DNA from: a virus
Taxonomy: Duplodnaviria; Caudoviricetes
Reading direction: 5' to 3' (one strand)
IMG/VR virus record: IMGVR_UViG_3300022178_001754
Coordinates: 1 to 30,099 of that record
DNA length: 30,099 nucleotides
Shown here: piece after piece, positions 3,817 through 30,099 of the stretch
How the letters are laid out: every line of letters begins with the position of its first letter
Position numbering within the stretch: position 1 is the first letter of the stretch
Program-made: the position numbers and the translations under genes
The notes under the pieces: model-generated
Databases searched by the model: none
Seen by the model: only the letters and a program-made list of their open reading frames with translations
Told to the model about the DNA's origin: nothing

Positions 3817-5357
3817 GTGGACTATTTAATAACTTAGTTTGGTTTGTAGGCGTAGTCGAAGACAGCGCTGACCTGACTAATGCAGGACGTGTTCGTGTGA
3901 GAGCATTCGGCGTACATCCTCCTAAAGGCGAAGCATTACCCACAAACCATCTACCATGGGCCACAGTACTTGATGGTACATACGGAGCGGCTCAAGTGGT
4001 TCCAAAGGTCGGTGATTGGGTATTTGGGTTCTTTGTTGATGGCAGAGAAGCACAGCATCCTATGGTTATGGGTAGAATTCCGGGCATGAACTTATCATGG
4101 CCCGCTGGATCTGGTAAGCCAGGCGAAGATAGCTATATTCCGCCTGAGAGTCTACACGAGTTTGGTGCACCTCCGCTTCATAGATACGTCAGTGGAGAAG
4201 ACTCCGAATTCGGTCAAGCCATTCTACAGAGAGCATTCCAACGCAGTGGTATAGACACAGCGGGCGATACCACGTTCGACGAACCACCTATTATGACTCC
4301 CGAGAGAAACCTCGACAACCGTGTTATTAAGTCTAAGAATGGCGATAACTTCTTAGTGCTATGTGATCCTGTAGAGAATGAGGCAGGTGACTTCATATTG
4401 CTATCACATTCGAGCGGATCTGTATTCCAGATTGATCCCAATGGTACAATATTCGTTAAGTCGTTCGGTGACACTTACAACTCAACCGAAGGCTTAGAGT
4501 TTAATAACGTACAAGGTAGTCAGCATACTAATATATCAGAAGACTGGACATTAAAGGTAGAGACTGGATCTGGTAAGGTATGGATTAATGGCGACCTCGA
4601 TATCGAATGTGAGAACTTCAATGTAACTGCTCGTGGAACGGCGAACATTCGATCTGCTATTAAGACGAATATCTCGGGTGGTAGTGTTGGCATATTTGCA
4701 TCAACTGATGATATCAACCTTGCAGCTAATAATAATATCAAGAATAAGTCTGGCAGTCTACTGAATGGTGGTGGATTTTACGTACAGAGCGATTATGGCG
4801 ACGTACATCTCGATGCATATAAGATGAATCTATATAGCTCTACATACACTAAAATTACCGCAGCAGGTATACCGGCGATCAGTACACAACTATTACCATA
4901 TCCCGATGTTACACATAAGGGCGTTGAGATAAACTCTCCAGCTGTTGTTAGCATTTCAACATTAGGCGCACTAGCACTTTCTGGTTCTACAACGTCAATC
5001 AAGGGCACTGTCGAGGCTAACCTAACCGGCGCAATCGTTGACGTTAAAGCGGATGGCCTTTTGAATCTGGAAGGTGGTGGCATAGCGAGTCTTGACGGTA
5101 CGTTAGTTAACATTGGTATGGGTACTGGCGCTGCGGCTGGCATTACCGCTTCAACTACCGCTACGACTACGATACGGGGTACACAAGTTGCATTCCCATC
5201 AGCAGCGAAGAGTGTGACCGAGGTTGCAGCAGCAGTCGATCCGGGCGAGATACCAGCTAGTCGTGCGTCAATATTTGGTGGTAGTTTCGTTGAGAGACAG
5301 AACGCACCAATGACCAGTTTTATGGGACACGATGATGATACGAATGGTCCTAGATAA
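3813..5357 (+). CDS. gp5: Baseplate hub / tail spike protein (gp5-like): OB-fold plus beta-helix, no recognisable lysozyme domain
   Basis: WFVGVVED...GRVRVRAFGVH...LPWA...G.WVFGFF.DG..AQ.P.VMG (gp5 OB domain), then HSSGS..QIDPNG and beta-helix-like repeats. Confidence 0.92.
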   Translation: MSGLFNNLVWFVGVVEDSADLTNAGRVRVRAFGVHPPKGEALPTNHLPWATVLDGTYGAAQVVPKVGDWVFGFFVDGREAQHPMVMGRIPGMNLSWPAGSGKPGEDSYIPPESLHEFGAPPLHRYVSGEDSEFGQAILQRAFQRSGIDTAGDTTFDEPPIMTPERNLDNRVIKSKNGDNFLVLCDPVENEAGDFILLSHSSGSVFQIDPNGTIFVKSFGDTYNSTEGLEFNNVQGSQHTNISEDWTLKVETGSGKVWINGDLDIECENFNVTARGTANIRSAIKTNISGGSVGIFASTDDINLAANNNIKNKSGSLLNGGGFYVQSDYGDVHLDAYKMNLYSSTYTKITAAGIPAISTQLLPYPDVTHKGVEINSPAVVSISTLGALALSGSTTSIKGTVEANLTGAIVDVKADGLLNLEGGGIASLDGTLVNIGMGTGAAAGITASTTATTTIRGTQVAFPSAAKSVTEVAAAVDPGEIPASRASIFGGSFVERQNAPMTSFMGHDDDTNGPR

Positions 5358-5358
5358 C

Positions 5359-5366
5359 AATAAATA
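5359..5366 (+). promoter_or_regulatory. Putative late promoter variant AATAAATA
   Basis: In the short intergenic gap before ORF 5400. AGGAAGGA Shine-Dalgarno-like sequence at about 5388-5395. Confidence 0.55.
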
Positions 5367-5399
5367 CACAATACGTCAATATAAATTAGGAAGGAATAT

Positions 5400-7751
5400 A
5401 TGACCTTTTGCGATTCCAGCACACCTCTATCGTCGAGATTTGATGCACAAGTCTTGCGACCAGACAGTGCTATATTCGATAAGCTCTTCGATCCGGCGGC
5501 GCTTATTGAACAAGGTAACCCCTTGGATAAGGTGGATCGACAAAGTGTCGTCAATGTCACTAATAGACTAAACGATATACTTTCTGATATGGATCTTGAT
5601 GCGTATCCAACTTTGAAGAAAAGGTTTGCGCAGCTGCCTATATCATACGTCGAGGTCGCAGACTTCGCACTAGCTGATAGCACCGACTTGGATAAAGTTT
5701 ATGCTGCCATGCGAGACTTTGATCCAACTGGCGGCACTGCCACTGGAACCGCTGGTGCTGCTACTGGAACCGCTGGTGCTGCTGTGAGTAATTCTGCGAA
5801 TGAGTCTGGGTCAGGCGGAACTGGTGGCACTAGTGTTGGTCAAACGGGAGTAGGTGGTACTGGAAGCGATGCTGTAGTGAGTGCAGCAGCATCTGGTATC
5901 GGCGCTGGCATACCAGGGACAACATCAGTAATAGATGCTAATGGAAACACACTTGACGTGACACGAGATGTGAACGATAATATAACATCTGTTGTGACGA
6001 GTGACCCGTCTGGTAATGCAATATCGTCTACAGAAGTAACTACAGATATTGATGGTAACGTGAAATCAGTAACTAAAGATTCTGAAGGTAATACCACCTC
6101 AACATCAACTCGTGATACGGCTAGTGATGGCACCGTATCCACAAAAACAACATCGTCCACAGGCACCACGTCGACCAGTAAAACCGATGCGACTGGCACG
6201 AAAACTACAGTAACTGATTCGTCGGGTACCACAACGACTACGAATACGGACACTGCTGGTAATACGACGACTACCACTACCGATGCATTAGGTGGAACGA
6301 CGACGACTACGCAGCAAACAGGAACGACTGGATCGGCAACACGGGAAAATGATGTCCTTGATGTATTAGCTGCGTTAGCTGTTCCTGTAGCTATAATAGC
6401 ATTTCTATCAAACTTCGATTTCCACCTAGACAATAACATTGGTGGATCTATAGCAGGTGGTCTGTGTGGACAGTTCGGAAACATATTCGATAAATTGTTT
6501 GGACTCTTTGATCTAATCAAATCTGGTAAAGATAAGATATCGGATATTGGTAACGATAATGAGAAAGACCCTGTAAAGAAACTTAAGTCTATAGGGTTTA
6601 GTCTAATCATTAAAGAGATGTATGCTAATATTGTCAAGATCATTAAAAAGCTTGTTAAGGAAATAAAGAAACGAGTTAAAGCTATGGTGGACTTCTCGGT
6701 GTCTATAGCAAGTAATATATACAATAAGATAAAAAAGATGGCAGAGAGTATACTAAACTTCTTCTCTGACATAAACATAGGTAAGTTTTTCCTAAGAATA
6801 GAGTCGTTTGTCGCCTCCACTGCATCACAGTTCGAAAGAATCACGGCAGAGGTCTTAGGTTTGTTGATGTTTCGTTTCTGTCAGTTCTCGGATACACTAC
6901 AAACAGTTCTTATGGGGCCAGCAACAGCACTAACAACTCTAGCTACCGCTGTTGCGACCGAGACTAGTATTGCTCAGAATACATCACTAAGACAGACAAG
7001 AGAGGCAGTGAGTGCCGGTGGAATACGAATAACGGCAGTCGATCGAGAGAAGGCAAAGGCTGAAGCGATTGCTACCAATAATGCACCACGTGCTGGTAGA
7101 GTCACCACAAAAACTGATGCTGTATTTGATCCTCAAGTTGATTGGCAGACACCACGTGGAGCCACTTTAGCTGAAAATGCTGCGATTAGCACACTGACCG
7201 AAGATGGTATAACCAACAAGTTTTCATTCTCGGCGAGTCTTAAGAGCGATGTTGGAAATTGGCAGAAAGTACAATCAGATGTGTGGGTTCGACTATTGAG
7301 AATCAGTGAACAGACGGGCAAACAGTACGTTGTTAACTCTGGATTTCGAGACAAAGCGCATAACATCGCAGTTGGTGGATCTTCGGACTCGATCCATATG
7401 AGTGGCTATGCGATCGATGTTATCGTATCGTCTGCGGACAGAGAGGACTTCTTCCTAGCAGCAGAACGAGCGGGATTCACTGGTATTGGTATATACAACA
7501 CATTCATTCACCTTGATTGTGGTGCGAGAAGGATGTGGGTAGCAGGACATGGATCTGAGAGTGGCTCTAGCTATGCGCTGACAGGTTCCACTAAGAATAA
7601 GTGGGTTAATGCTATACCAAAGCACAATAGAGACGAATATAGAAAGAACTCTGGTATACCAGTTGAACAGTTGGCTAGGCAGAACTCTCTTGAGACTAAG
7701 CGAGCTATTGCAGCAGAAGCTGCTACTCAACACACAAAACGCCGTGGCTAA
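5400..7751 (+). CDS. Large virion-associated protein with Thr/Ser-rich repeats and a C-terminal peptidase M15A (Zn DD-peptidase/Hedgehog fold) domain
   Basis: NSGFR...HN..VGG...S.HMSG.AID and GFTGIGIY.TFIHLD motifs at about 7330-7520. TD..GN.T.T repeats at about 5920-6340. Confidence 0.85.
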   Translation: MTFCDSSTPLSSRFDAQVLRPDSAIFDKLFDPAALIEQGNPLDKVDRQSVVNVTNRLNDILSDMDLDAYPTLKKRFAQLPISYVEVADFALADSTDLDKVYAAMRDFDPTGGTATGTAGAATGTAGAAVSNSANESGSGGTGGTSVGQTGVGGTGSDAVVSAAASGIGAGIPGTTSVIDANGNTLDVTRDVNDNITSVVTSDPSGNAISSTEVTTDIDGNVKSVTKDSEGNTTSTSTRDTASDGTVSTKTTSSTGTTSTSKTDATGTKTTVTDSSGTTTTTNTDTAGNTTTTTTDALGGTTTTTQQTGTTGSATRENDVLDVLAALAVPVAIIAFLSNFDFHLDNNIGGSIAGGLCGQFGNIFDKLFGLFDLIKSGKDKISDIGNDNEKDPVKKLKSIGFSLIIKEMYANIVKIIKKLVKEIKKRVKAMVDFSVSIASNIYNKIKKMAESILNFFSDINIGKFFLRIESFVASTASQFERITAEVLGLLMFRFCQFSDTLQTVLMGPATALTTLATAVATETSIAQNTSLRQTREAVSAGGIRITAVDREKAKAEAIATNNAPRAGRVTTKTDAVFDPQVDWQTPRGATLAENAAISTLTEDGITNKFSFSASLKSDVGNWQKVQSDVWVRLLRISEQTGKQYVVNSGFRDKAHNIAVGGSSDSIHMSGYAIDVIVSSADREDFFLAAERAGFTGIGIYNTFIHLDCGARRMWVAGHGSESGSSYALTGSTKNKWVNAIPKHNRDEYRKNSGIPVEQLARQNSLETKRAIAAEAATQHTKRRG
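5739..5780 (+). repeat. 21-bp tandem duplication (ATGTAGA x2)
   Basis: gccactggaaccgctggtgct / gctactggaaccgctggtgct, 1 mismatch. Confidence 0.9.
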
Positions 7752-7753
7752 CG

Positions 7754-7761
7754 CATAAATA
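7754..7761 (+). promoter_or_regulatory. Putative late promoter variant CATAAATA
   Basis: Directly after the stop of ORF 5400 and 17 nt before the gp25 ATG. AAGGA Shine-Dalgarno follows. Confidence 0.65.
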
Positions 7762-7778
7762 CAAGAAAAGGAAATACA

Positions 7779-8189
7779 ATGGCAGGTCTAACACCAAGAA
7801 CACGAGCACGAGAATTGTATTCCGATTTCTCTAAGAATCTGGATCAAGTACCCGGACGCAATGATCTATCTAGGAAGATCAACGAGAATGCGGTGAAAGA
7901 GTCTATTAAGAACATCGTCCTCACGAATAAGGGCGAGAGGCTGTTTCAACCAAGCATAGGGTGTAATATTTCGGCATCATTATTCGAAAATCTGGATGCT
8001 AATACGATTCTTATTCTAAAGGATAACATTAAAACTGCTATCCGTACGTATGAACCACGTTGCGATCTAAAAGACGTAGAGATTATAGCAGACTTAGACA
8101 CTAATAATTTGCAAGCGACTGTTCTGTTTAGCGTACTAAATACAAGTACGACCTCATCTATAACACTCGATCTTGTCAGGGAAAGATAA
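7779..8189 (+). CDS. gp25: Baseplate wedge / sheath initiator (gp25-like)
   Basis: YSDF, NE.AVKESIKNIVLT.KGERLFQP.IG and I..YEPR motifs. Confidence 0.95.
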   Translation: MAGLTPRTRARELYSDFSKNLDQVPGRNDLSRKINENAVKESIKNIVLTNKGERLFQPSIGCNISASLFENLDANTILILKDNIKTAIRTYEPRCDLKDVEIIADLDTNNLQATVLFSVLNTSTTSSITLDLVRER

Positions 8190-9956
8190 ATGGCTAATAT
8201 ATCACCAGTAACAGACTTAGACTTCTTTGCCACTAAAGAAGCCCTTAAGACGTTCCTAAAGAACCAAGACAGGTTCAAGGATTACGACTACGAGGGGTCG
8301 AACATGAATGTCCTATTGGACGTTCTATCATACAACACATTCTATAATAACTACTATTATAACATGGCAGTGTCTGAGATGTTTCTTGATAGTGCCTCAC
8401 AGCGTAATAGTGTCATTAGTCACGCCAAAGAGCTTAACTATATGCCACGGAGCAGACGGTCATCCGCCGTCACGTGTGATATTACCTTCACTGCGGCTGC
8501 TGATTATGGGTCTAACTTCATAGCCATACCTGCTAACTCATCGTTTACTGGACATTGTGGCAATAAGACCTACATCTTTTTAAACGAGAAGGCATACGTT
8601 GCTGCACGAAGCTCAACATCACCAACGTCCTTTGTAGCAAGCTCGGTTGAGTTGTTTGAAGGTCGATACATAACCGAAGTGTTATCCGTTGCTGATACCA
8701 CCATATCCAACTCTTGGATAGACACCCGTAGTATCACCATGACTGTTAATGGCGTTGCATTCACTTATAAGAGTGAGATATTTGGTGTGGGATCGGTCGA
8801 TAAAGTATTCTATCTCCAACCCGAGAATGATGGTCGATACAGCGTACAATTTGGTCAAAATCGATTCGGATTTCAGCCTACGATCACAGATTCGATCTCG
8901 GTGTCGTATAGACTGTGTACAGGCCCGGAAGCGAATGGCGTTAATAGTCTGTCACTGCCATCATCATTCGGTGGAGCAAGTTCTAACATAATCGCAGTAT
9001 CTGGTCAGTCTGCCGGTGGATTCTATGGCGAGGGCATTGAGTCTATTCGTACGTTTGCACCGAAGGCGCTTCAAGTACAAGAGCGAGCTATCACTAAGCG
9101 TGACTACGAGACTCTGTTACGAGCAAGATTTCCGAACATCCAAGCAATCTCTGTGTACGGCGGTGATGAAGTTGATCCTCCTAAGTACGGCAAGGTCATC
9201 ATCTCCATCGATGTTGCTGGTGGCCAAGGCGCTGCCGAATATGAGGTAGCTAACTTTAAAAACTACCTAAAAGACAAGACTCCTTTGACGATTGATCCGA
9301 TCTTCGTTGCAGCTAAGTTCTTGTTTGTCGACACAGTAATCAATGTCAAGTATGATGCTAACCTTACTTCTAAGTCAGCAGCGCAGATCAAAAACGAAGT
9401 GTATTCTGCCGTTCTCACCTATCAGACTACATACTTAAACGATTTCAATAAGACACTCCGCCAATCTCGATTAGCGGCAACCCTTGATTCGGTAGATGGA
9501 TCTATCATAAGTACTGATATCGTTGCTAAACCAATTATCGAATATATTCCTGTACTTAACATAGCAAGTAGTCCGTCGTTCTCATTTGAGGATGCACTTG
9601 TTAAGCCATATGCATTTGATGCTATCACTGGTTTCGATTCATTCAATCCAGCTGTAAGTACAACCAAGTTCACTTATGATGGCGCACTCGTTACCATGCA
9701 AGACGATGGGTTGGGCAGCTTCATGCTCGTCACGGCAGGAACGGATGTAGCACGAGTGTTTAAGTACGGCGTTGGTACGGTAAACTATACGACTGGTGCT
9801 ATCAAGCTATCGAACATCACCGTTGATGACTTCGAAGGCGCAGCAATCAAGTTCACAGCTTCTACTGTAAACAAAGACGTTAAGACTCCAAAGGATAGAA
9901 TAATATCTATTCGTGGCGAAGACATTACAATCAACGTAACACCATTGGCGACATAA
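8190..9956 (+). CDS. gp6: Baseplate wedge subunit (gp6-like)
   Basis: LDF...K..LK.FLK.Q..FKDYDYEGS..NVLLDVLSYNT.YN, EMFLDSA.QR.SV.SHAKEL.Y.P, Q.RA.T..DY and GG....PP.YGKV motifs. Confidence 0.96.
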   Translation: MANISPVTDLDFFATKEALKTFLKNQDRFKDYDYEGSNMNVLLDVLSYNTFYNNYYYNMAVSEMFLDSASQRNSVISHAKELNYMPRSRRSSAVTCDITFTAAADYGSNFIAIPANSSFTGHCGNKTYIFLNEKAYVAARSSTSPTSFVASSVELFEGRYITEVLSVADTTISNSWIDTRSITMTVNGVAFTYKSEIFGVGSVDKVFYLQPENDGRYSVQFGQNRFGFQPTITDSISVSYRLCTGPEANGVNSLSLPSSFGGASSNIIAVSGQSAGGFYGEGIESIRTFAPKALQVQERAITKRDYETLLRARFPNIQAISVYGGDEVDPPKYGKVIISIDVAGGQGAAEYEVANFKNYLKDKTPLTIDPIFVAAKFLFVDTVINVKYDANLTSKSAAQIKNEVYSAVLTYQTTYLNDFNKTLRQSRLAATLDSVDGSIISTDIVAKPIIEYIPVLNIASSPSFSFEDALVKPYAFDAITGFDSFNPAVSTTKFTYDGALVTMQDDGLGSFMLVTAGTDVARVFKYGVGTVNYTTGAIKLSNITVDDFEGAAIKFTASTVNKDVKTPKDRIISIRGEDITINVTPLAT

Positions 9957-23454: not shown

Positions 23455-23787
23455 ATGGCAATTAAAGCAAATATCATAATCGACCAAGGCACAGACTACT
23501 CTGCTATCATTGACGTAGAAACTGCGTCTAATACTGTATACGATTTACGTGACCATACAGTGGCGGCTCAGATGAGAAAAAACTATTCATCCGCCAACGC
23601 TACCACGTTTATCTGTACGCATAATGGTGTGCTTGGCCAGATATCGATGTCGCTCGGTAAAGATGAGACCACTCTTTTGGAGCCTGGTAGATATCTGTAT
23701 GACATAGAAATAACAACATCAGGAGGATCAGTATCACGTGTTGTACAAGGCACCGTAACTGTATCACCTGGAATGACGAGGATATAG
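23455..23787 (+). CDS. Small conserved virion structural protein (BppU N-terminal-like adaptor)
   Basis: N..IDQG.D, AAQMRK.Y.S, L.PGRYLYD.EI and RVVQG..TV.PG.TR motifs, typical of T4-like structural regions. Confidence 0.75.
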   Translation: MAIKANIIIDQGTDYSAIIDVETASNTVYDLRDHTVAAQMRKNYSSANATTFICTHNGVLGQISMSLGKDETTLLEPGRYLYDIEITTSGGSVSRVVQGTVTVSPGMTRI

Positions 23788-24019: not shown

Positions 24020-26103
24020 TGTCTATAATTAAGATAAAAAGATCCAGTGGTGTCATAGCACCCACAGCGCTTGCGCTGGGAGAATTAGGTTATACCTATG
24101 GTGCTGGTATTCAAGCCAACGGCGGCGATCGACTGTACTTAGGTACAAGCGGCGAGTCTGGTGGAATAGCAAACGCAATTGATGTCATCGGCGGTAAGTA
24201 CTTTACTGACATGACAGACCACGTACATGGTACGTTGACAGCAAGTTCTGCTCTAATTGTTGATGCTAACAGCAAGATTGATATCCTTAACATTGATAAC
24301 ATAACTATCAACGGTAACACGATATCCTCAACAGACACCAATGGAAATATCGTTCTTACTCCAAATGGCTCTGGACTTGTTCAGCTAAATGGCGTCGTAG
24401 AGTTTGCATCTTCCACATCATTCACTGGCGTACTTAACGCTAATGGTGGTATTGCTGTAGATTCAACCAACTTCACCGTTGATGGAACTACTGGTGCAGT
24501 ACACACGGCGAGCACTTTAGAAGTTGCTGGTCAGTCTACTTTGGCATCTGTCGCAGTAACCGACTTGACGAACAATCGAATCGTCATTGCTGGCACAGCT
24601 GGTGAACTAGAAGACGACTCGAACTTCACATTCGATGGCACAACACTGACCGTAGTAGCTGATTATTCTCAGACTGGTACTGGAACAGTTACTGGCCAAT
24701 GGAATGTTGATAACATGCGGCTCGATGGCAATACACTGTCATCAACTGATACCAATGGTAATATCGTACTGACCCCGAACGGTACTGGATATGTTACAAT
24801 ATCTGGCACAAACGGTCTCGTTATTCCATCAGGCACCAATCTTCAGCAAGGTCCTACTGTAACTGGCGCAATTCGCTATAACAGTGACAACACTCAGTTC
24901 GAAGGTTACTCTGGTGCTAACTGGTCATCTCTTGGTGGTGTTCGCTCTGTCGATGGTTTCACATACATCATTGCAGAATCTTCACCTGCTGCTTCTGACG
25001 ATATTCTGCACTTCTACGCTGCCGATGCTGCTGGTACTGGTACAGTCGAAGTCAGTCAACTAGATCGAGTAAGTCTTCGATTATTGCAGACAACTGGCGC
25101 AGTAAGCAATACAACTGGCGCACTTGTAGTCGCTGGTGGCGCAGGCATTGCCGAGAATCTATATGTCGGTGGCGACACGGTTCTTACTGGTGATCTAGAA
25201 GTAGTTGGTGGTGATATCACTACTGATCAGACTACTTTCAATCTCCTCAATACCACTGCTACTACTGTTAATGCATTCGGTGCAGCAACTACTGTCGCAA
25301 TCGGTACTGGTGGCGAAGGTGGTGGCACAACAACGATCGGTCATGACTTAACAGTCGTTGGCGATTTGGACGTTGGTGCTGGTAACTTTACCGTAGATGC
25401 TACAACTGGCGACTTCGAAACAGCTGGTGATGCAATCATTGGTGGTAACTTAACTGTTAATGGTACTACAACCTCTGTTAATGTTGATGTGCTTGAAGTT
25501 GAAGACGCACTCATCAGACTTGCTTCTGGTAACACAGCTGATTCAATCGATATCGGTTTTGTTGGTAGCTATAACGATGGAGTTAACGACCAATTCGCTG
25601 GTATCTTCCGAGATTCTACCACCAGTGAGTTCTACGTATTCGATGAACTGATCGACACAGACTTAAACGATAACGTAGTCAACCGAGCTGATGCATCGTT
25701 CAGTCTTGCCAACGTTAACGTAGACACTGTTAAGTTTGCTTCGCAAACATTCACCCTAACGGGCGATGTTGCTGGTCAGATTACAGTAAGTGACTTCGGT
25801 ACAACTGCACACTCGATTGCTACCACTATCCAAGCTAACTCTGTTGCTCTTGGCACAGACACTACCGGTGCATATGTCTCTACACTTGCCGAAGGTACAG
25901 CTGGACAGACAGACGCTAATGGCACCACATCTAACGGTGTTGTTGTTACTGGTTCTGGAAGTGAGACTGCTGCTGTTACGGTTGATATCAACATTGCTGA
26001 TACAGTTGGCGGGATTGGTACTTCTACGTACGATGCAACTAACTTTGATGTTACTGCTGGTGGCCTTGTAACTATTGATACGATCGATGGTGGAACGTTC
26101 TAA
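24019..26103 (+). CDS. Tail fibre-like structural protein with an Mtd-N-like N-terminus
   Basis: IKIKRS...P..LA.GELGY N-terminus, two DN...GNT.SSTDTNGNIVLTPNG.G.V repeats, G.IRYN....FEGY and GNLTVNGTTT motifs. Ends IDGGTF. Confidence 0.8.
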   Translation: MSIIKIKRSSGVIAPTALALGELGYTYGAGIQANGGDRLYLGTSGESGGIANAIDVIGGKYFTDMTDHVHGTLTASSALIVDANSKIDILNIDNITINGNTISSTDTNGNIVLTPNGSGLVQLNGVVEFASSTSFTGVLNANGGIAVDSTNFTVDGTTGAVHTASTLEVAGQSTLASVAVTDLTNNRIVIAGTAGELEDDSNFTFDGTTLTVVADYSQTGTGTVTGQWNVDNMRLDGNTLSSTDTNGNIVLTPNGTGYVTISGTNGLVIPSGTNLQQGPTVTGAIRYNSDNTQFEGYSGANWSSLGGVRSVDGFTYIIAESSPAASDDILHFYAADAAGTGTVEVSQLDRVSLRLLQTTGAVSNTTGALVVAGGAGIAENLYVGGDTVLTGDLEVVGGDITTDQTTFNLLNTTATTVNAFGAATTVAIGTGGEGGGTTTIGHDLTVVGDLDVGAGNFTVDATTGDFETAGDAIIGGNLTVNGTTTSVNVDVLEVEDALIRLASGNTADSIDIGFVGSYNDGVNDQFAGIFRDSTTSEFYVFDELIDTDLNDNVVNRADASFSLANVNVDTVKFASQTFTLTGDVAGQITVSDFGTTAHSIATTIQANSVALGTDTTGAYVSTLAEGTAGQTDANGTTSNGVVVTGSGSETAAVTVDINIADTVGGIGTSTYDATNFDVTAGGLVTIDTIDGGTF

Positions 26104-26115
26104 ATAGATAGTACA

Positions 26116-26160
26116 GAGACGGGGATGCTTTGGTACATACCATTCAAGCATCTCTGTCTT
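26116..26160 (+). other. RNA hairpin with G-U pairs between two fibre genes
   Basis: AGACGGGGATGCTT (26117-26130) pairs with AAGCATCTCTGTCT (26146-26159), including two G-U pairs. Inner stem TGGT/ACCA with a 3-nt bulge. Confidence 0.75.
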
Positions 26161-26201
26161 AATTAGAAGCTATATAGCTATTATATCAGGTGTGAGCATA
26201 C

Positions 26202-27170
26202 ATGTCAACCATTAAATTAAAAAGAAGTGCAGTTGCGGGTAAAGTCCCGACAACAGCCAGTCTAGCATTAGGCGAAGTCGCACTTAATACGTATGACGGA
26301 AAACTGTACATAAAGAAAGATGTTGGTGGAGTAGAATCCATTGTATCCTTCGCAGGTGCAGCAGGAGCATCATCAGCCGCAGAGTCAACTGTTTATCTTG
26401 ACACTGGTACAGGTGATGGAACTACCGCAACGTTCACTATGTCGGTCACCCCGGCTGCTGAACAGAATATATTCGTATATCTCAATGGAGTGCTTCAGCA
26501 CACATCTGAGTATTCGTATTTGGGTCCAATCCTAACATTCACAACAGCTCCTGAGCTTGACGATGAGATCGAAGTTCGTATCATCGCAACACTATCAGCT
26601 GCCGTCTCAATCCGAGACTATAAGAATTTTCTATACACATTCGCCACTTCTCAGCAGACCTTCACTGGCGCTGATGATAACGGTGATGTGCTTGCTTACG
26701 ATGTAGGCAAAGTCGAGGTCTATGCAAACGGTATTAGACTCGTAAACGGTGATGATTATACGGCCACAGGTGGTACTTCAATTGTACTGCAACAGCCAAT
26801 AACATCCGGCATCGTAGAGATCGTCTCTCTGGCACGAGCAGCATTCCTCAATCGTGACGCACTCAATCCAGTAGAATCAGCTCTAACTACAACAGACGTA
26901 AATCAAGTGGCTGATGCATTCCTAGCGACTACATACAGAACTGCCAAATACTTGGTACAGATGTCCACAAGTACAGCATTTCATTCAACCGAAGTACTGC
27001 TCATTCATGACGGAACGACTGTTTATATGACCGAATTTGGAACAATCTATTCCGGTAGTAGCCTAGGCACCATTGATGGCGACATCGTTGGTGGTGAGGT
27101 TCGGTTACTTGTTTCTCCGGCGAATGTTGACACTACAGTCAAAGCACAACGATTAACGGTGGCAGTATAA
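26202..27170 (+). CDS. Virion structural / fibre-associated protein
   Basis: IKLKRSAV.GK.P....L.LGEVALNTYDGKLY N-terminus, two beta-sandwich-like repeats containing V(Y)xNG(V/I), and C-terminal YRTAKY.VQ......E.L.IHDG. Confidence 0.8.
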   Translation: MSTIKLKRSAVAGKVPTTASLALGEVALNTYDGKLYIKKDVGGVESIVSFAGAAGASSAAESTVYLDTGTGDGTTATFTMSVTPAAEQNIFVYLNGVLQHTSEYSYLGPILTFTTAPELDDEIEVRIIATLSAAVSIRDYKNFLYTFATSQQTFTGADDNGDVLAYDVGKVEVYANGIRLVNGDDYTATGGTSIVLQQPITSGIVEIVSLARAAFLNRDALNPVESALTTTDVNQVADAFLATTYRTAKYLVQMSTSTAFHSTEVLLIHDGTTVYMTEFGTIYSGSSLGTIDGDIVGGEVRLLVSPANVDTTVKAQRLTVAV

Positions 27171-27171
27171 T

Positions 27172-28026
27172 ATGACAACTAAGATAAAACACAGTAATAT
27201 AACCCAGCCGTTAGTCGGTGCGTTCGTAGTAGATGGTGCTATAACATCATCCTCTTTAAACACTAATGCTATAACGTCAACCTCCATAGATAATGGGGTC
27301 AATGCTATAACGACCGGATCTATAGCAACTACCGGCGATGTTGGTATTGGTGTAGCTGTTCCCGTTGCTAGACTTCATATAGATGGAGCTGAAGACGCTA
27401 CTGGCGGCATCACGCTATCAGCTGGTGCTCAGAACCATCAGTGGTTCCTGTCTTCTGATTTTGTAAACGTACATAACATTGCAACAAGCTCCGCTGGCGC
27501 TGCTCATACTTGGCAGACTAACAGCGTTGAGCATATGCGGATTGATGGGTCAGGCAATGTCGGGATTGGCACGACTGCTTCAAGAAAGCTTACGATAAAA
27601 GGTGGTACTGGAGACAACCTTCCGGTTAGAGTTATCGGTGGAACTGGTACTACTAAGGCCCACATGGAGTTCCAAGACCCAACAACCACCGCTGATTATA
27701 AAGTTACAATAGGGTCCATAGGTGATTCCCTTACCTTTAACGCTGGTGGTACAGAGCGTATGATTCTGTCGGCAACAGGAGATCTAACGGTATCTATCGG
27801 AGATGTGTTACCTGGAACCAATACTCAAGACTTAGGTAGCGTTGCTAGTCCTTGGCAGAACATCTACACACAGGATTTAGTACTTTCTAACGAATCACGA
27901 GCTGAAGGTAACTCTGTTGATGGGACTAAGGGTAACTGGACAATCCAAGAAGGCGAAGAGCACTTGTACATCATAAACAATAAGAATGGTAAGAAGTATA
28001 AATTCGCACTTGAGGAGATCATGTAA
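27172..28026 (+). CDS. Short tail fibre-like protein
   Basis: G(D/N)VGIG repeats, E.MRI.G.G, DLGS...PW.NIYT.DL.LSNE and GNWTIQEGEE.LYIIN.K.GKKYKF.L.E C-terminus. Confidence 0.8.
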   Translation: MTTKIKHSNITQPLVGAFVVDGAITSSSLNTNAITSTSIDNGVNAITTGSIATTGDVGIGVAVPVARLHIDGAEDATGGITLSAGAQNHQWFLSSDFVNVHNIATSSAGAAHTWQTNSVEHMRIDGSGNVGIGTTASRKLTIKGGTGDNLPVRVIGGTGTTKAHMEFQDPTTTADYKVTIGSIGDSLTFNAGGTERMILSATGDLTVSIGDVLPGTNTQDLGSVASPWQNIYTQDLVLSNESRAEGNSVDGTKGNWTIQEGEEHLYIINNKNGKKYKFALEEIM

Positions 28027-30099
28027 TGGCTATCATAAAAACCGCAGTTGATGCAACGATTGCCGTAACAGCAGTCGATACGTTCATATATGATACCCGA
28101 AAGGATTCGGACGGCGGTGCATGGCGTAAGCGTACTCAGAATACCAGTTGGTATAATGAGGAACTAAACACTGCCACTCGTGGATCACGCAAAGAGTTTC
28201 CCACCGTTGCTGTGATTGTGGCTGAAGCTGATAAAGTTACCATCTACGATGGTGATGATTCAGCTCTGCCAATGTGGATGGTGTTTCAAAGACCGGGAAC
28301 TGGTAGTGTAGCGGCATTAGGAATGCTGGCTGTGCAAACGGGCATAAAGAGTATGATGGTAAACGGTATTCTTGCAAGCTCGGGAAGAGGATCATGGGGT
28401 GAAGGGCTAACAACAATATCTTTTATAGATGAAAAAGCTATATATAACAAATCCGCAACAGTTTATGCTTCACAAAAAAATATAGCAGATAGAAATTTAT
28501 CTGGAGGATATATCCAGATTGATTATGTGACTGGTATCGTCTTCGCCGCAGCCAACGACGTAGCCATGACCGTCCTTCCCAACGCACCAATAGACCCTGC
28601 CACTGGACTACCTGTCCCGACTATTGCTGTTGCTACTGATGGCGGCGTGAGTGTGATTAAGGATAATGGGACTGTTGTTGATATAACTCAGTCATCTGGG
28701 GCAACATATAGTTACTCATACCTAGTGCGATTCAAGAACGGTCTACTATTCTTTGGTTTAGATAATAATGGAATTTCTGGTGGACGTAGGTATTATTTAA
28801 GGAGCATACCTTCAAGTGACATTGTGTTGACTTACAATGACATATCATTAATCGTATCTACATCTGAAACGGATGGTGTGCCTGTCCCTTTATCCACTGG
28901 TAGGTTTAAGTTGTATGATAAGGTTGGGATAGGCTCTATTTCTGGCCTAACACTCCTAGACGAAAACCCAGCAACCCCATCAAAAGGCTCTGTAGCCTAC
29001 ATAACCTCAGACTACAACACAGGCTGGATGAACGGTGACATCAAGTTAGCTACCCTTTCGGATACTGATACGACTGATGTTGTTGGTACTGAGTTGGTGA
29101 CTAATGGTGATGGTGGCACTACTACAGGGTGGACTGCTTATAACGCTGTAATTTCATCGGTGGGAGGAAAGCTACGGGTAAGTGATAGCGCCAATGCTGG
29201 TAGTTGGTCGTCAGCAGTACAAGAATTAACAGGCATGGTTAGTGGGGAGCTTTATACACTGTCAATGGATGTTGATGTAATTAGTGGGGCAACTGCCCAC
29301 TTCGGACTAAATGGGGATGCTACAACCGCTCCCGACCGTCAGGTGGACCCCGATATTGGTAGTATGACTTACACCAATACATTTATAGCAGATGAACATA
29401 ATTTCCTATATGTGGGGGCAGGTGGAACAGGTGTAGTAGACCTAGACAACATCTCAGTACGCCTAGCAGAACCAGACCGCAGTGCTAACGGCAACGGTCT
29501 CCAAGTATTCGGCACAGTCAACAAGACGGCCGTAGCAACGGGTGCTGACCTTGTAGGGTACAGTGGGTTTAGTTCTAGTAATTATTTAAGTCAGCCTTAT
29601 AACAGTGATCTGGACTTTGGTACTGGTGACTTTAGTGTGATGGGTTGGGTTAATTTGACAGGTGATGATGAGGCTATCATCGATAGAGGTAACGGCGTAG
29701 ATTCGACTAATAGAATACAATTTCATGTATTCAACAACGCACTTCGCATGGTAACAGCAGGCACCACCATTATAGCGGGAGGGGCTGTTGCAGATGGGGC
29801 GTGGTCACACTTTAGCTTCAAGCGGCAAGGTGGCGTAGGCACTTGTTACTTAAATGGCATAGCGGTAGCTAGCGGCAATTGTACTGATAATCTATCAGGT
29901 AATTTTTCAACAAAGGTCGGTGTGAGCCACACGCTAGCTAACCCAATGTCAGGTTCCTTAGCACTCCTCCGAATCTCAGCAACAGCCCCAACCGCTGAAC
30001 AGATAGCCAAAATCTACAACGACGAGAAGCCTCTCTTCCAAGAGAATGCTCAAGCAACTCTGTACGGCACCTCAGACGCTGTAACAGCCATTGCATATG
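28026..30099 (+). CDS. Modular tail / receptor-binding protein with CBM-like and LamG (ConA-like) domains, truncated by the window end
   Basis: Manual translation from ATG 28026 (TAATG overlap) is open for 691 codons to the window end: MAIIKTAVDATIAVTAVDTFIYDTRKDSDGGAWRKR... CBM-like ELVTNG...GW...Q...G..YT.S...DNISVR at about 29091-29462. LamG-like DFGTGDFSVMGW...WSH...R.GG....YLNG at about 29610-30020. Not in the supplied ORF track. Confidence 0.88.
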   Translation, partial: MAIIKTAVDATIAVTAVDTFIYDTRKDSDGGAWRKRTQNTSWYNEELNTATRGSRKEFPTVAVIVAEADKVTIYDGDDSALPMWMVFQRPGTGSVAALGMLAVQTGIKSMMVNGILASSGRGSWGEGLTTISFIDEKAIYNKSATVYASQKNIADRNLSGGYIQIDYVTGIVFAAANDVAMTVLPNAPIDPATGLPVPTIAVATDGGVSVIKDNGTVVDITQSSGATYSYSYLVRFKNGLLFFGLDNNGISGGRRYYLRSIPSSDIVLTYNDISLIVSTSETDGVPVPLSTGRFKLYDKVGIGSISGLTLLDENPATPSKGSVAYITSDYNTGWMNGDIKLATLSDTDTTDVVGTELVTNGDGGTTTGWTAYNAVISSVGGKLRVSDSANAGSWSSAVQELTGMVSGELYTLSMDVDVISGATAHFGLNGDATTAPDRQVDPDIGSMTYTNTFIADEHNFLYVGAGGTGVVDLDNISVRLAEPDRSANGNGLQVFGTVNKTAVATGADLVGYSGFSSSNYLSQPYNSDLDFGTGDFSVMGWVNLTGDDEAIIDRGNGVDSTNRIQFHVFNNALRMVTAGTTIIAGGAVADGAWSHFSFKRQGGVGTCYLNGIAVASGNCTDNLSGNFSTKVGVSHTLANPMSGSLALLRISATAPTAEQIAKIYNDEKPLFQENAQATLYGTSDAVTAIAY

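Follow-up and report, generated by a model that had tools for sequence, protein, structure and literature searches.

A mirror-image silent-site skew borders the exchanged modules of a predicted receptor-binding gene family in aquatic phages

Introduction

Why would a gene switch repeatedly, at its silent positions, between codons ending in C or A and codons ending in G or T? The question is raised by a predicted receptor-binding tail protein gene at the end of a 30,099-nucleotide stretch of a Caudoviricetes virus (IMG/VR record IMGVR_UViG_3300022178_001754), which is referred to here as the window. An earlier note, made from the letters alone, had counted runs of both kinds by eye around module-sized segments and proposed that the skewed blocks are homology anchors across which variable modules are swapped.

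Results

A skew beyond synonymous codon choice

The eight hand counts of the earlier note were exact in frame (20/27, 21/27, 19/21, 26/27, 20/20, 27/30, 33/40 and 21/23). We used a boundary-free statistic, the variance of the sliding third-position G/T fraction, and compared it with 2000 amino-acid-preserving codon shuffles. ORF 28026-30098 gave z=10.8 with 15 codons and z=10.5 with 25 codons, values reached by 0 of the 2000 shuffles. Comparable runs were lacking elsewhere in the window, where 14 of the 15 other ORFs tested had |z|≤2.0; the exception was a short ORF, 23455-23787 (z=3.5/2.7). The gp6-like ORF 8190-9956, a core-gene control, gave z of −0.2/−0.6. Homologues carried the skew as well: counting near-duplicates, 47 of 56 target ORFs had z>3, against 25 of 338 for the other ORFs of these loci.

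Layout of the gene and its predicted protein

The gene is a mosaic in which five DNA-conserved anchors (C1-C5) alternate with four hypervariable, independently swapped modules (V1-V4). Its full length takes the 3' end from the overlapping locus L141. The features are as follows.

28026..30099, + strand: predicted receptor-binding tail protein gene, 691 of 736 codons, truncated by the contig end
28068..28289, + strand: anchor C1, aa 15-88; first part weakly C/A-rich, G/T-rich from about 28197
28290..28535, + strand: module V1, aa 89-170, unskewed
28536..28685, + strand: anchor C2, aa 171-220; C/A half, then G/T half
28686..28988, + strand: module V2, aa 221-321; the window's C/A run begins earlier, at 28944
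28989..29120, + strand: anchor C3, aa 322-365; C/A half 28989-29060, G/T half 29061-29120
29121..29444, + strand: module V3, aa 366-473; core of a predicted carbohydrate-binding sandwich
29445..29660, + strand: anchor C4, aa 474-545; C/A half 29445-29522, G/T part 29523-29660
29661..29957, + strand: module V4, aa 546-644; LamG core
29958..30099, + strand: anchor C5, aa 645 onward; C/A-rich for about 20 codons

The position of the flip is conserved in the family, at aa 187-197 in C2 (about 28620 in the window) and at aa 343-350 in C3. Two of the runs counted by hand depart from the family pattern. The C/A run at 28944 is present, although its start lies some 15 codons before the family-conserved block, and the G/T run 29538-29657 is strong in the window, but the family mean is skewed only in the middle of the G/T part of C4, 30-39 codons from the module. 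C5 has no G/T half within the gene, and no module comes after it.

A Pfam search of ORF 28026..30099 returned a single domain, Laminin_G_3 at aa 519-661. There was no PHROG match, and tblastn of the protein against 50,697 phage records (cultured phages) gave no match. A domain search detected CBM_4_9 in 2 and DUF642 in 2 of 60 family members. The structure model (pLDDT 72, pTM 0.45) predicts a beta-propeller-like region, an inserted carbohydrate-binding-type beta-sandwich and a LamG domain; fold matches had a whole-chain TM of about 0.2 and indicate domain types only. The earlier note had equated the framed segments with protein modules, and this holds for predicted domain cores or propeller parts, not for entire domains. 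Lectin-type domain content and a position among tail genes suggest a role of the family in host range, and we therefore treat its members as predicted host-recognition genes common to very different aquatic phages. The 16 window ORFs comprise structural genes only, with no recombination protein among them. Three hits were found in bacterial genomes; two are on contigs (1.7 and 3.4 kb) that carry the labels Roseovarius and Thalassovita, which we take as a host lead only.

Modules are exchanged one at a time

The skewed blocks are the nucleotide-conserved ones: median pairwise DNA identity was 0.66-0.75 in C1-C5 versus 0.48-0.50 in V1-V4, where amino-acid identity was 0.20-0.25. Allele clusters numbered 111 among 131 sequences for V1, 116 among 140 for V2, 119 among 139 for V3 and 113 among 137 for V4. 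The modules are also discordant with one another, with rank correlations of identity from −0.06 to 0.11 over 630 pairs. Among 67 pairs that share any module at ≥0.70 identity, 54 differ at another module; 39 pairs have all four modules, and these share one (29 pairs), two (3 pairs) or four (7 pairs), the unshared modules being 0.27-0.58 identical (n=129), all with the caveat that sequence pairs are not independent. The window's V3, for example, is 86% identical to that of L142 and L147, and its V1, V2 and V4 are unlike those of L142 and its V4 unlike that of L147.

Bridging contigs joined the window's anchors through different sequence at V1 (28286 to 28549-28555), and others spanned V2 (28675-28688 to 28989-29012) and V4 (29633-29653 to 29958-29973). 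We used only such contigs as evidence and took depth as a hint, because the parts of a gene cannot be ranked by contig depth and a coverage hole proves nothing. Window-module contigs lay below the upstream contigs in X2 (234 vs 97/103/68/82), X7 (836-982 vs 556/498/399/297) and X8 (2433-2699 vs 1264/1176/993/880), which may be one campaign, and some window modules were without contig cover in X10, X11, X16 and X17. The summed depth of alternative alleles exceeded upstream depth, as paralogs or other phages would produce.

Crossovers lie inside the anchors, so the proposed swapping of modules across homology anchors was borne out; the breakpoints are scattered along the anchors and mark no fixed crossover site. 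Over 12 right and 8 left flanks of pairs that share a module, mismatch amounted to 0.10-0.26 of background beside the module and climbed to 0.73-0.87 at the anchor's distal end. Module-proximal flanks are thus usually co-transferred with the module. This co-conversion gradient is present on both flanks, and accumulated ordinary crossovers would give it too.

Modules are exchanged also between phages of different tail type with unlike neighbouring genes. In L033 the genes upstream are those for tape measure and distal tail; its V2 is 0.96 identical to that of L072 and its V4 0.77 identical to that of L037, which lies downstream of portal and capsid genes; L195, with a T4-like gp9 upstream, shares V2 at 0.86 with L052. 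Over 327 nt, one V3 matches a gene of a different family at 92% identity. When ORFs of at least 100 codons within the 3.5-6 kb flanks were searched for donor cassettes, a module matched another ORF of the fetched loci in 0/131 (V1), 0/140 (V2), 1/139 (V3) and 0/137 (V4) cases. Module donors appear to be other phages and paralogs.

The polarity is mirrored around modules in three gene families

In 138 of 139 homologues, the stretch of about 20 codons that follows a module is C/A-rich, and the anchor turns G/T-rich ahead of the next module. Residual skew stayed within 0.05 of zero in the modules and fell to −0.27 to −0.37 over the first ten codons past each; the skew changes abruptly at the module edge and has no gradient inside modules or along the gene. 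The C/A zone is constant after all four modules, C5 included. The G/T zone varies more: left of V4, the family mean was 0.00, −0.01, +0.06 and then +0.19, leaving the first 20-30 codons unskewed. Skew correlated with identity to the consensus (rho 0.73), a relation that is partly circular.

The same polarity was found in two neighbour families. The predicted sign was seen in 51/52, 61/61 and 57/58 sequences at three flanks of neighbour family 1, and in 8/8 and 10/10 sequences of neighbour family 4. Altogether it held at 13 of 13 flanks in three gene families, one of them displaced from the edge and two not independent. It was absent from T-even gp38 (z>3 in 0/17) and from the distant homologues L044, L045 and L220, and the widespread fibre motif GNVGIG had at most a weak flip (−0.10 to +0.09, 61 occurrences).

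Composition, motifs and structure of the anchors

Over all positions of the top strand, G/T halves contain A.22, C.18, G.30 and T.30 and C/A halves A.29, C.30, G.20 and T.20, which makes them mirror-symmetric. The skew is real, yet it is mainly a rise of G and a fall of A on the G/T strand, not an equal gain of G and T. G+C at four-fold sites was 0.42 and 0.53 in anchors versus 0.30 in modules. On the G/T strand, TGG, GTG and GGT reach 11.8 and 6.6 per 100 nt, where module codon usage would give 6.9 and 2.9; recoding with the anchors' own usage gave 10.8 and 5.9, so composition explains almost all of the enrichment.

These data bear on a programmed pathway, in which a protein of phage or host origin would recognise G/T-rich DNA, nick, cut or load at the anchors and direct replacement. 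A polarity that is alike in three families and absent from gp38, L044, L045 and L220 would suit such a protein, and genes of an HNH endonuclease family (6 unique genes) adjoin some members. However, no 4-6-mer was common to the anchors beyond composition (P=0.34-0.96). The E. coli Chi octamer, which may differ from the host's own Chi for AddAB or RecBCD, was exact on the 3'-tail strand in only 12 of 1007 anchor halves, and one-mismatch matches exceeded recoding in K2 and K4 only. A G4 pattern occurred in 0 of 1007 halves. Together with the scattered breakpoints, and with the 22 largest neighbour families (partly annotated) giving only HNH and peptidase-like genes, this makes a programmed pathway quite improbable. 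A TGAG-like motif noticed by eye was rejected as not significant, with CTGAGA occurring in three of the eight consensus halves (P=0.93).

The two kinds of half complement each other in base composition, and codon choice at domain borders or hairpins between halves could in principle produce the pattern at the level of RNA or translation. Pairing or looping-out of the halves was discarded as a candidate, since in the 40 of 65 complete sequences that were computed, with RNA as well as DNA parameters, cognate halves had no better duplex energies than non-cognate pairs or composition-matched recodings. The C2 flip is placed by the structure model in a loop inside the predicted propeller region, and homologues exist that have the same protein blocks without the skew. 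The V3 module of the window does lie between the arms of one 18-nt imperfect inverted repeat (29086-29103 / 29443-29460), which would favour an RNA-level cause, but we regard such a cause as very improbable.

Alternatively, ancestral blocks skewed by chance may have been homogenised through recombination. In line with such a frozen accident, four-fold sites are more conserved in anchors (ten of 11 windows at 0.48-0.60, the other at 0.36) than in families of core type at like protein identity (0.35-0.49; one small family 0.56). Bases nevertheless turn over within class, G/T exchanges making up 43% of differences in G/T halves and A/C exchanges 36% in C/A halves, and one sign recurs at 11 non-homologous flanks. 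A frozen accident is thus hardly to be expected.

Mutation or selection

The earlier note had offered strand-specific mutation or repair of single-stranded DNA as one source of the skew. Single-strand exposure or error-prone repair beside modules would raise A-to-G and slightly C-to-T change and leave a neutral footprint. If only transitions are allowed, with a 10-14-fold rise of A-to-G and a 1-2.4-fold rise of C-to-T, a model matches both four-fold composition and the polymorphism spectrum, and point mutations in recombinant gp38 chimeras have been ascribed to possible local error-prone repair (PMC3157838). The synonymous polymorphism spectrum of random pairs was fitted equally well by mutation-only and selection models. 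We dropped an argument for selection from the substitution spectrum (within-class changes 41-51% vs 12-14% expected), because mutation-only models give the same spectrum at the observed diversity.

Rare non-synonymous variants were more informative. They had no strand bias, with 15/44 vs 14/56 sites (P=0.38) and, in a stricter pool, 10/50 vs 14/65; a threefold mutation bias would give about 25 sites (P of about 0.001 or less) and can be rejected, with the caveat that rare variants may include assembly errors and imports and that sites differ in tolerance. In the anchors, which were the part covered, there was no A-specific excess. The absence of strand bias counts against mutation as the cause, as do the step at the module edge and the lack of a gradient in modules or gene. 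Spontaneous deamination, moreover, would favour C-to-T over A-to-G. Mutation is therefore disfavoured, and we consider it improbable.

A proposed recombination model for the polarity

We consider it somewhat probable that homologous recombination itself keeps up the polarity, the strand that runs 3' into the module being held G/T-rich by selection or biased conversion, because it is this strand that would invade and prime on a diverged partner. During co-infection, a genome would break or stall with an end inside a module. Resection would leave 3' tails, of the top strand left of the module and of the bottom strand right of it, which would pair with the 60-200 bp anchors of another phage, be trimmed back and then copy the partner's module plus part of its flanks.

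The bias might be maintained in two ways. Wobble mismatches may be tolerated in trimming and extension, and G.T mismatches may survive trimming better than A.C mismatches; the tail strand would then be converted towards G and T without selection on the phage. Alternatively, RecA-family proteins may hold TG-rich single strands more stably, in which case alleles with stabler filaments would gain modules more often and hitch-hike with them. Filaments of the E. coli RecA protein are reported to be most stable on TGG and least stable on CCA repeats (PMC3763553). Selection for the RecA-preferred strand fits our data, is indistinguishable from biased mismatch resolution, and the two ways are not separable here. 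In either case the dominance of A-to-G over C-to-T would reflect the general rise of G+C in the anchors.

Some observations run counter to this mechanism. The skew is strongest exactly where the recipient tail is mostly replaced. Since the proximal flanks travel with the module, the mechanism needs trimming, and hitch-hiking becomes weaker. The family-mean flank left of V4 starts unskewed, and gp38 recombines at conserved motifs without skew, so the polarity is not a general consequence of such exchange.

There is a modest chance that the opposite strand is the active one. Donor fragments with a G/T flank before the module and a C/A flank after it would be resected to C/A-rich 3' tails, which would be nearly structure-free and would anneal to the recipient through a single-strand annealing protein of Red-beta, Sak or Erf type or by second-end capture. 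Both proximal flanks tend to move together with the module, as such fragments would require, and it is the C/A zone that is constant, including at C5, which has no competing G/T half; the G/T zone is less uniform and is shifted away from the edge at V4. Low structure by itself, however, cannot set a polarity without an extra assumption, nor does it predict the gain of G+C in the anchors, and no annealing protein was found in the window or among the annotated neighbour genes.

Recombination as the force that keeps up the polarity could be extended to a community-wide cassette standard, in which myo-, sipho- and podo-like phages of one host group pool hundreds of modules and a specific G/T-strand-preferring pathway reads the silent-site polarity, a directed diversification without reverse transcriptase or recombination site. 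We think this doubtful.

Discussion

If the recombination reading is true, silent DNA would here be shaped for the swapping of host-range modules in a way not described before. Silent sites would provide a sequence-only footprint of recombination polarity, from which the pairing strand on each side of an exchanged module could be read. Maintenance by selection would make it one of the few measurable cases in which silent DNA is tuned for evolvability, and maintenance by biased mismatch resolution a keto-biased, strand-polar gene conversion distinct from GC-biased conversion. The skew statistic finds anchor-module genes without alignment and flagged two more families here. The family illustrates the exchange of host-recognition parts between phages with otherwise unlike neighbouring genes, and its module mosaicism explains why metagenome assemblies break at such genes.

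Comparison with known systems

Diversity-generating retroelements and shufflons or invertases diversify phage tail tips, as this gene family is predicted to do. Here, no reverse transcriptase was found in the 16 window ORFs and no template repeat among the repeats in 26000-30099. Adenine-specific mutagenesis on one strand, typical of such retroelements, is not what we see either: rare variants in the anchors have no A-specific excess, the polarity inverts across modules, and modules are replaced whole. A repeated specific crossover site, expected for shufflons and invertases, is lacking (no common motif, scattered breakpoints), and no site-specific recombinase was found in the window or among 47 annotated locus proteins (of 746 unique genes). 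The suggestion of a diversification free of reverse transcriptase and recombinase therefore stands for the 30 kb window and the fetched flanks; as a claim about the whole genome it goes beyond that scope.

Borrelia vlsE, Treponema tprK and Neisseria pilE (the last with a G4) vary by gene conversion from silent cassettes. They resemble the present family in that variable segments are replaced between conserved flanks by homologous recombination, with a G-rich strand in some, and differ in that no silent donor array was seen among ORFs of at least 100 codons in the 3.5-6 kb flanks here and no G4 was found. Homing-type repair shares the co-conversion gradient on both flanks, but no endonuclease is linked to the family, HNH genes numbering 6 versus 159 unique members.

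TG-rich DNA is reportedly preferred by RecA. E. coli Chi and such DNA share with the anchors a G/T-rich strand whose 3' end would point to the break (PMC3763553). Instead of an octamer or motif, we find a silent-site compositional zone of 60-100 bp that is mirrored on both sides of a module. In human adenovirus D, hypervariable segments are associated with GC/AT transition zones and Chi-like motifs (PMC6010623). There too a compositional step at conserved/hypervariable junctions marks recombination hot spots and RecA is invoked; it is a step in G+C with a motif 5' of one loop, whereas here it is a strand skew of opposite sign on each side.

A close likeness is to T-even gp38, in which four hypervariable segments lie between five glycine-rich motifs and gp37 exchanges as well (Trojet et al., 2011; PMC3157838). 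Both are host-recognition genes with five conserved blocks and four variable segments, and exchange occurs in or near the conserved blocks. The proteins are unrelated, the window protein having no gp38 homology or glycine-rich motifs. Modules of 60-120 aa, common to several tail types, take the place of short loops, and single-module exchange is the rule here, whereas 0 of 14 selected gp38 chimeras described there had an internal exchange (PMC3157838). In the literature searched, which included few subscription journals, we found no account of a G/T-C/A polarity of anchors. Exchange at conserved blocks was thus already known from gp38, which lacks the polarity; the strand polarity is the new part.

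Conserved anchors and variable modules

The window covers a T4-like myophage baseplate and tail region, with matches to gp53, gp5, gp25, gp6, a gp8-like protein and a fibre, and the runs containing it are labeled as freshwater, aquatic and seawater metagenomes. After the gp5-like gene, positions 5400-7751 encode a baseplate-region protein of 783 aa that contains a peptidase M15 domain. Alignment of 51 sequences divided the last gene into five conserved blocks (C1-C5, the anchors) and four intervening variable modules (V1-V4). Among 42 near-complete sequences, DNA identity was 0.66-0.75 in the blocks and 0.48-0.50 in the modules, where protein identity was 0.20-0.25; the segments framed by the codon skew are thus more variable than the skewed blocks, as the earlier note had proposed. 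The homologues (members) comprise 159 unique sequences, or 146 once near-identical ones were removed, and each module fell into 111-119 allele clusters (131-140 sequences). Independent contigs from public runs, part of which may derive from other phages, join the same block ends through other sequence at all four modules.

Features of the gene and its surroundings
28026-30098 (+): last ORF of the window, truncated at the contig end
L141 847-1926 (window contig continued): next gene downstream, a 359-aa tail-fibre-type gene of family 1
28286 to 28549-28555: bridge over V1 in independent contigs
28675-28688 to 28989-29012: bridge over V2 in independent contigs
29030-29092 to 29465-29469: bridge over V3 in independent contigs
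29633-29653 to 29958-29973: bridge over V4 in independent contigs
aa about 365-480: sandwich, predicted structure
aa 520-660: LamG domain, predicted structure

The overlapping locus L141, identical over aa 457-691, places the end of the full gene at aa 736. The product is probably a receptor-binding protein. In its predicted structure (pLDDT 72, pTM 0.45), aa 60-330 form putative beta-sheet repeats consistent with a propeller. Pfam assigned LamG to 53 of 60 members and CBM_4_9 to 2/60, and a fold search matched propeller-plus-lectin enzymes and phage lectin proteins, with low whole-chain TM. Among L001-L055, two-ended members vary greatly in N-terminal extension (ORFs of 646 to 1237 codons, open-ended ones longer), and the L009 member carries an Mtd_N domain. 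An HNH endonuclease gene lies immediately 3' of one member gene (L025 2122-2727; 6 unique genes in its family among the fetched loci). In L208, L192 and L074 the gene is split over reading frames, possibly through assembly errors.

Exchange of single modules

Modules are exchanged singly between the anchors. Of 67 pairs with any module in common at an identity of at least 0.70, 54 differ at another module, and the unshared modules of such pairs are 0.27-0.58 identical. Among 39 pairs with all four modules present, exactly one was common in 29, two in 3 and four in 7, the last being near-identical copies; the pairs in these counts are not mutually independent. Mismatches in module-sharing pairs were 0.10-0.26 of background at the module side of a block, climbing to 0.73-0.87 at its far end. 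Breakpoints of individual exchanges scatter, and with the mismatch gradient this points to homologous recombination with no fixed site.

Modules also cross between phages. In 11/17 pairs with a testable flank, blastn covered only 0-2% of it, a figure that overstates unrelatedness because variable fibre genes are included. Annotated neighbors of members are tape-measure and distal-tail genes, internal virion proteins, portal and capsid genes, or a T4-like gp9, and phages with such differing contexts have modules in common (L033/L037, L195/L052). Family 4, consisting of small stand-alone sandwich-domain genes (L032 6613-7287 and relatives), has the G/T anchor of C3 in common at the DNA level and exchanges modules with V3 (L072/L103, 92% identical over 327 nt). 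In family 1, downstream (68 genes), 49 variable cores fell into 40 allele clusters, and C5 plus the start of the family 1 gene form a single long anchor spanning the gene border. L200, L207 and L112 each carry two paralogs on one contig, whose modules are dissimilar and whose anchors share 62-81% identity (45% in one case); in the second L112 paralog the sandwich domain lies inside C1, not between C3 and C4. At 27507-27780, contigs break off and numerous others accumulate at a GNVGIG fibre motif (ORF 27172-28026), which suggests a candidate further common short anchor, with weak skew.

Strand skew at third codon positions

The third-position skew described in the earlier note was confirmed. 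All eight hand counts were exact, and a boundary-free statistic gave z=10.8 and 10.5 against synonymous shuffles (0/2000 as high). It is not general in the window, since 14/15 other ORFs had |z|<=2.0. The exception is a 110-aa ORF at 23455-23787 (phrog_1084/tail fibre assembly match) with z=3.5 (15 codons) and a 12-codon C/A run close to its end, marginal given 16 ORFs tested. In the first 58 loci, near-duplicates included, z exceeded 3 in 47/56 scored homologous ORFs vs 25/338 other ORFs. The sign was the same in 138/139 sequences (median difference 0.43) and the flip points were positionally conserved (quartiles aa 187-197, 343-350 and 496-520). Skew was weak in the divergent L044, L045 and L037. 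The L220 homologue (5227-8205; 72% G+C, Rhodospirillales bin) had none (z 2.2); it keeps the conserved protein blocks and lacks the sandwich insertion.

Measured relative to module codon usage, residual third-position G/T inside modules deviated from zero by no more than 0.05 (by up to 0.12 over the ten codons at an edge). It fell to between -0.27 and -0.37 over the first ten codons behind every one of V1-V4, and over the last ten ahead of V1-V3 it reached +0.19 to +0.31. The flank ahead of V4 was irregular: the value was 0.00 next to the module and rose to +0.19 only at a distance of 30-39 codons. C5 has no G/T half, and no module follows it in this gene. The same polarity rule holds in families 1 and 4 (the latter 13 genes) at five further flanks, of which two are homologous to flanks of V3; it does not hold in a family of 15 virion-protein genes.

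Base composition at four-fold sites
Left flanks, G/T strand: A.08, C.09, G.33, T.49
Right flanks, G/T strand (bottom): A.14, C.11, G.42, T.32
Modules, top strand: A.32, C.16, G.14, T.39

The skew is mostly a rise in G and a fall in A, with G+C higher than in modules, and within-class base turnover occurs in the blocks.

Origin of the polarity

Pairing between block halves did not exceed that of composition-matched recodings. At the family level, the halves framing V3 paired slightly better than recoded controls (-13.4 vs -12.1 kcal/mol, DNA), and an 18-nt inverted repeat, 83% complementary, flanks V3 (29086-29103/29443-29460). The halves have no 4-6-mers in common beyond composition; E. coli Chi occurred exactly in 12/1007 halves and a G4 pattern in 0/1007.

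A first substitution-spectrum test in favor of selection was undone, since a mutation-only model, with A-to-G elevated 10-14-fold, fits the spectrum equally well at the observed diversity. Strand-specific mutation, one of the causes offered in the earlier note, predicts that rare variants changing an amino acid at a conserved site show an equal excess. These variants, which may include errors and imports, showed none (15/44 vs 14/56; 10/50 vs 14/65), and a threefold excess was rejected. The cause that remains is a force on existing variants, confined to the pairing zone and opposite in sign on the two sides of a module. We consider a recombination-linked, non-mutational origin likely, whichever strand supplies the tails.

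In the simplest geometry a different strand would pair on each side of the module: a break inside the module would be followed by repair, both 3' tails being G/T strands. G.T mismatches are better tolerated than A.C. Filaments of E. coli RecA have their highest stability on TGG repeats and their lowest on CCA repeats (PMC3763553). We lean slightly towards such G/T tails. Against them, proximal flanks mostly move with the module, the V4 flank departs from the rule, and TGG enrichment comes almost wholly from composition. Annealing by C/A-rich donor 3' tails is a live alternative, favored by the greater regularity of the C/A zone.

Comparison with known systems

Features of DGRs, shufflons and silent cassettes were sought in the window and fetched loci, and none was confirmed, part of them being of a kind that needs whole genomes. 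The literature searched, with subscription journals mostly outside its coverage, held no description of the strand polarity. In adenovirus D, hypervariable junctions carry steps in G+C content and Chi-like motifs (PMC6010623), not a mirror skew. The gene studied here is no homologue of T-even gp38, and z exceeded 3 in 0/17 gp38 sequences. In architecture and mode of exchange the two are alike: gp38 has five conserved motifs and four variable segments, and exchange takes place in or near the motifs (PMC3157838).
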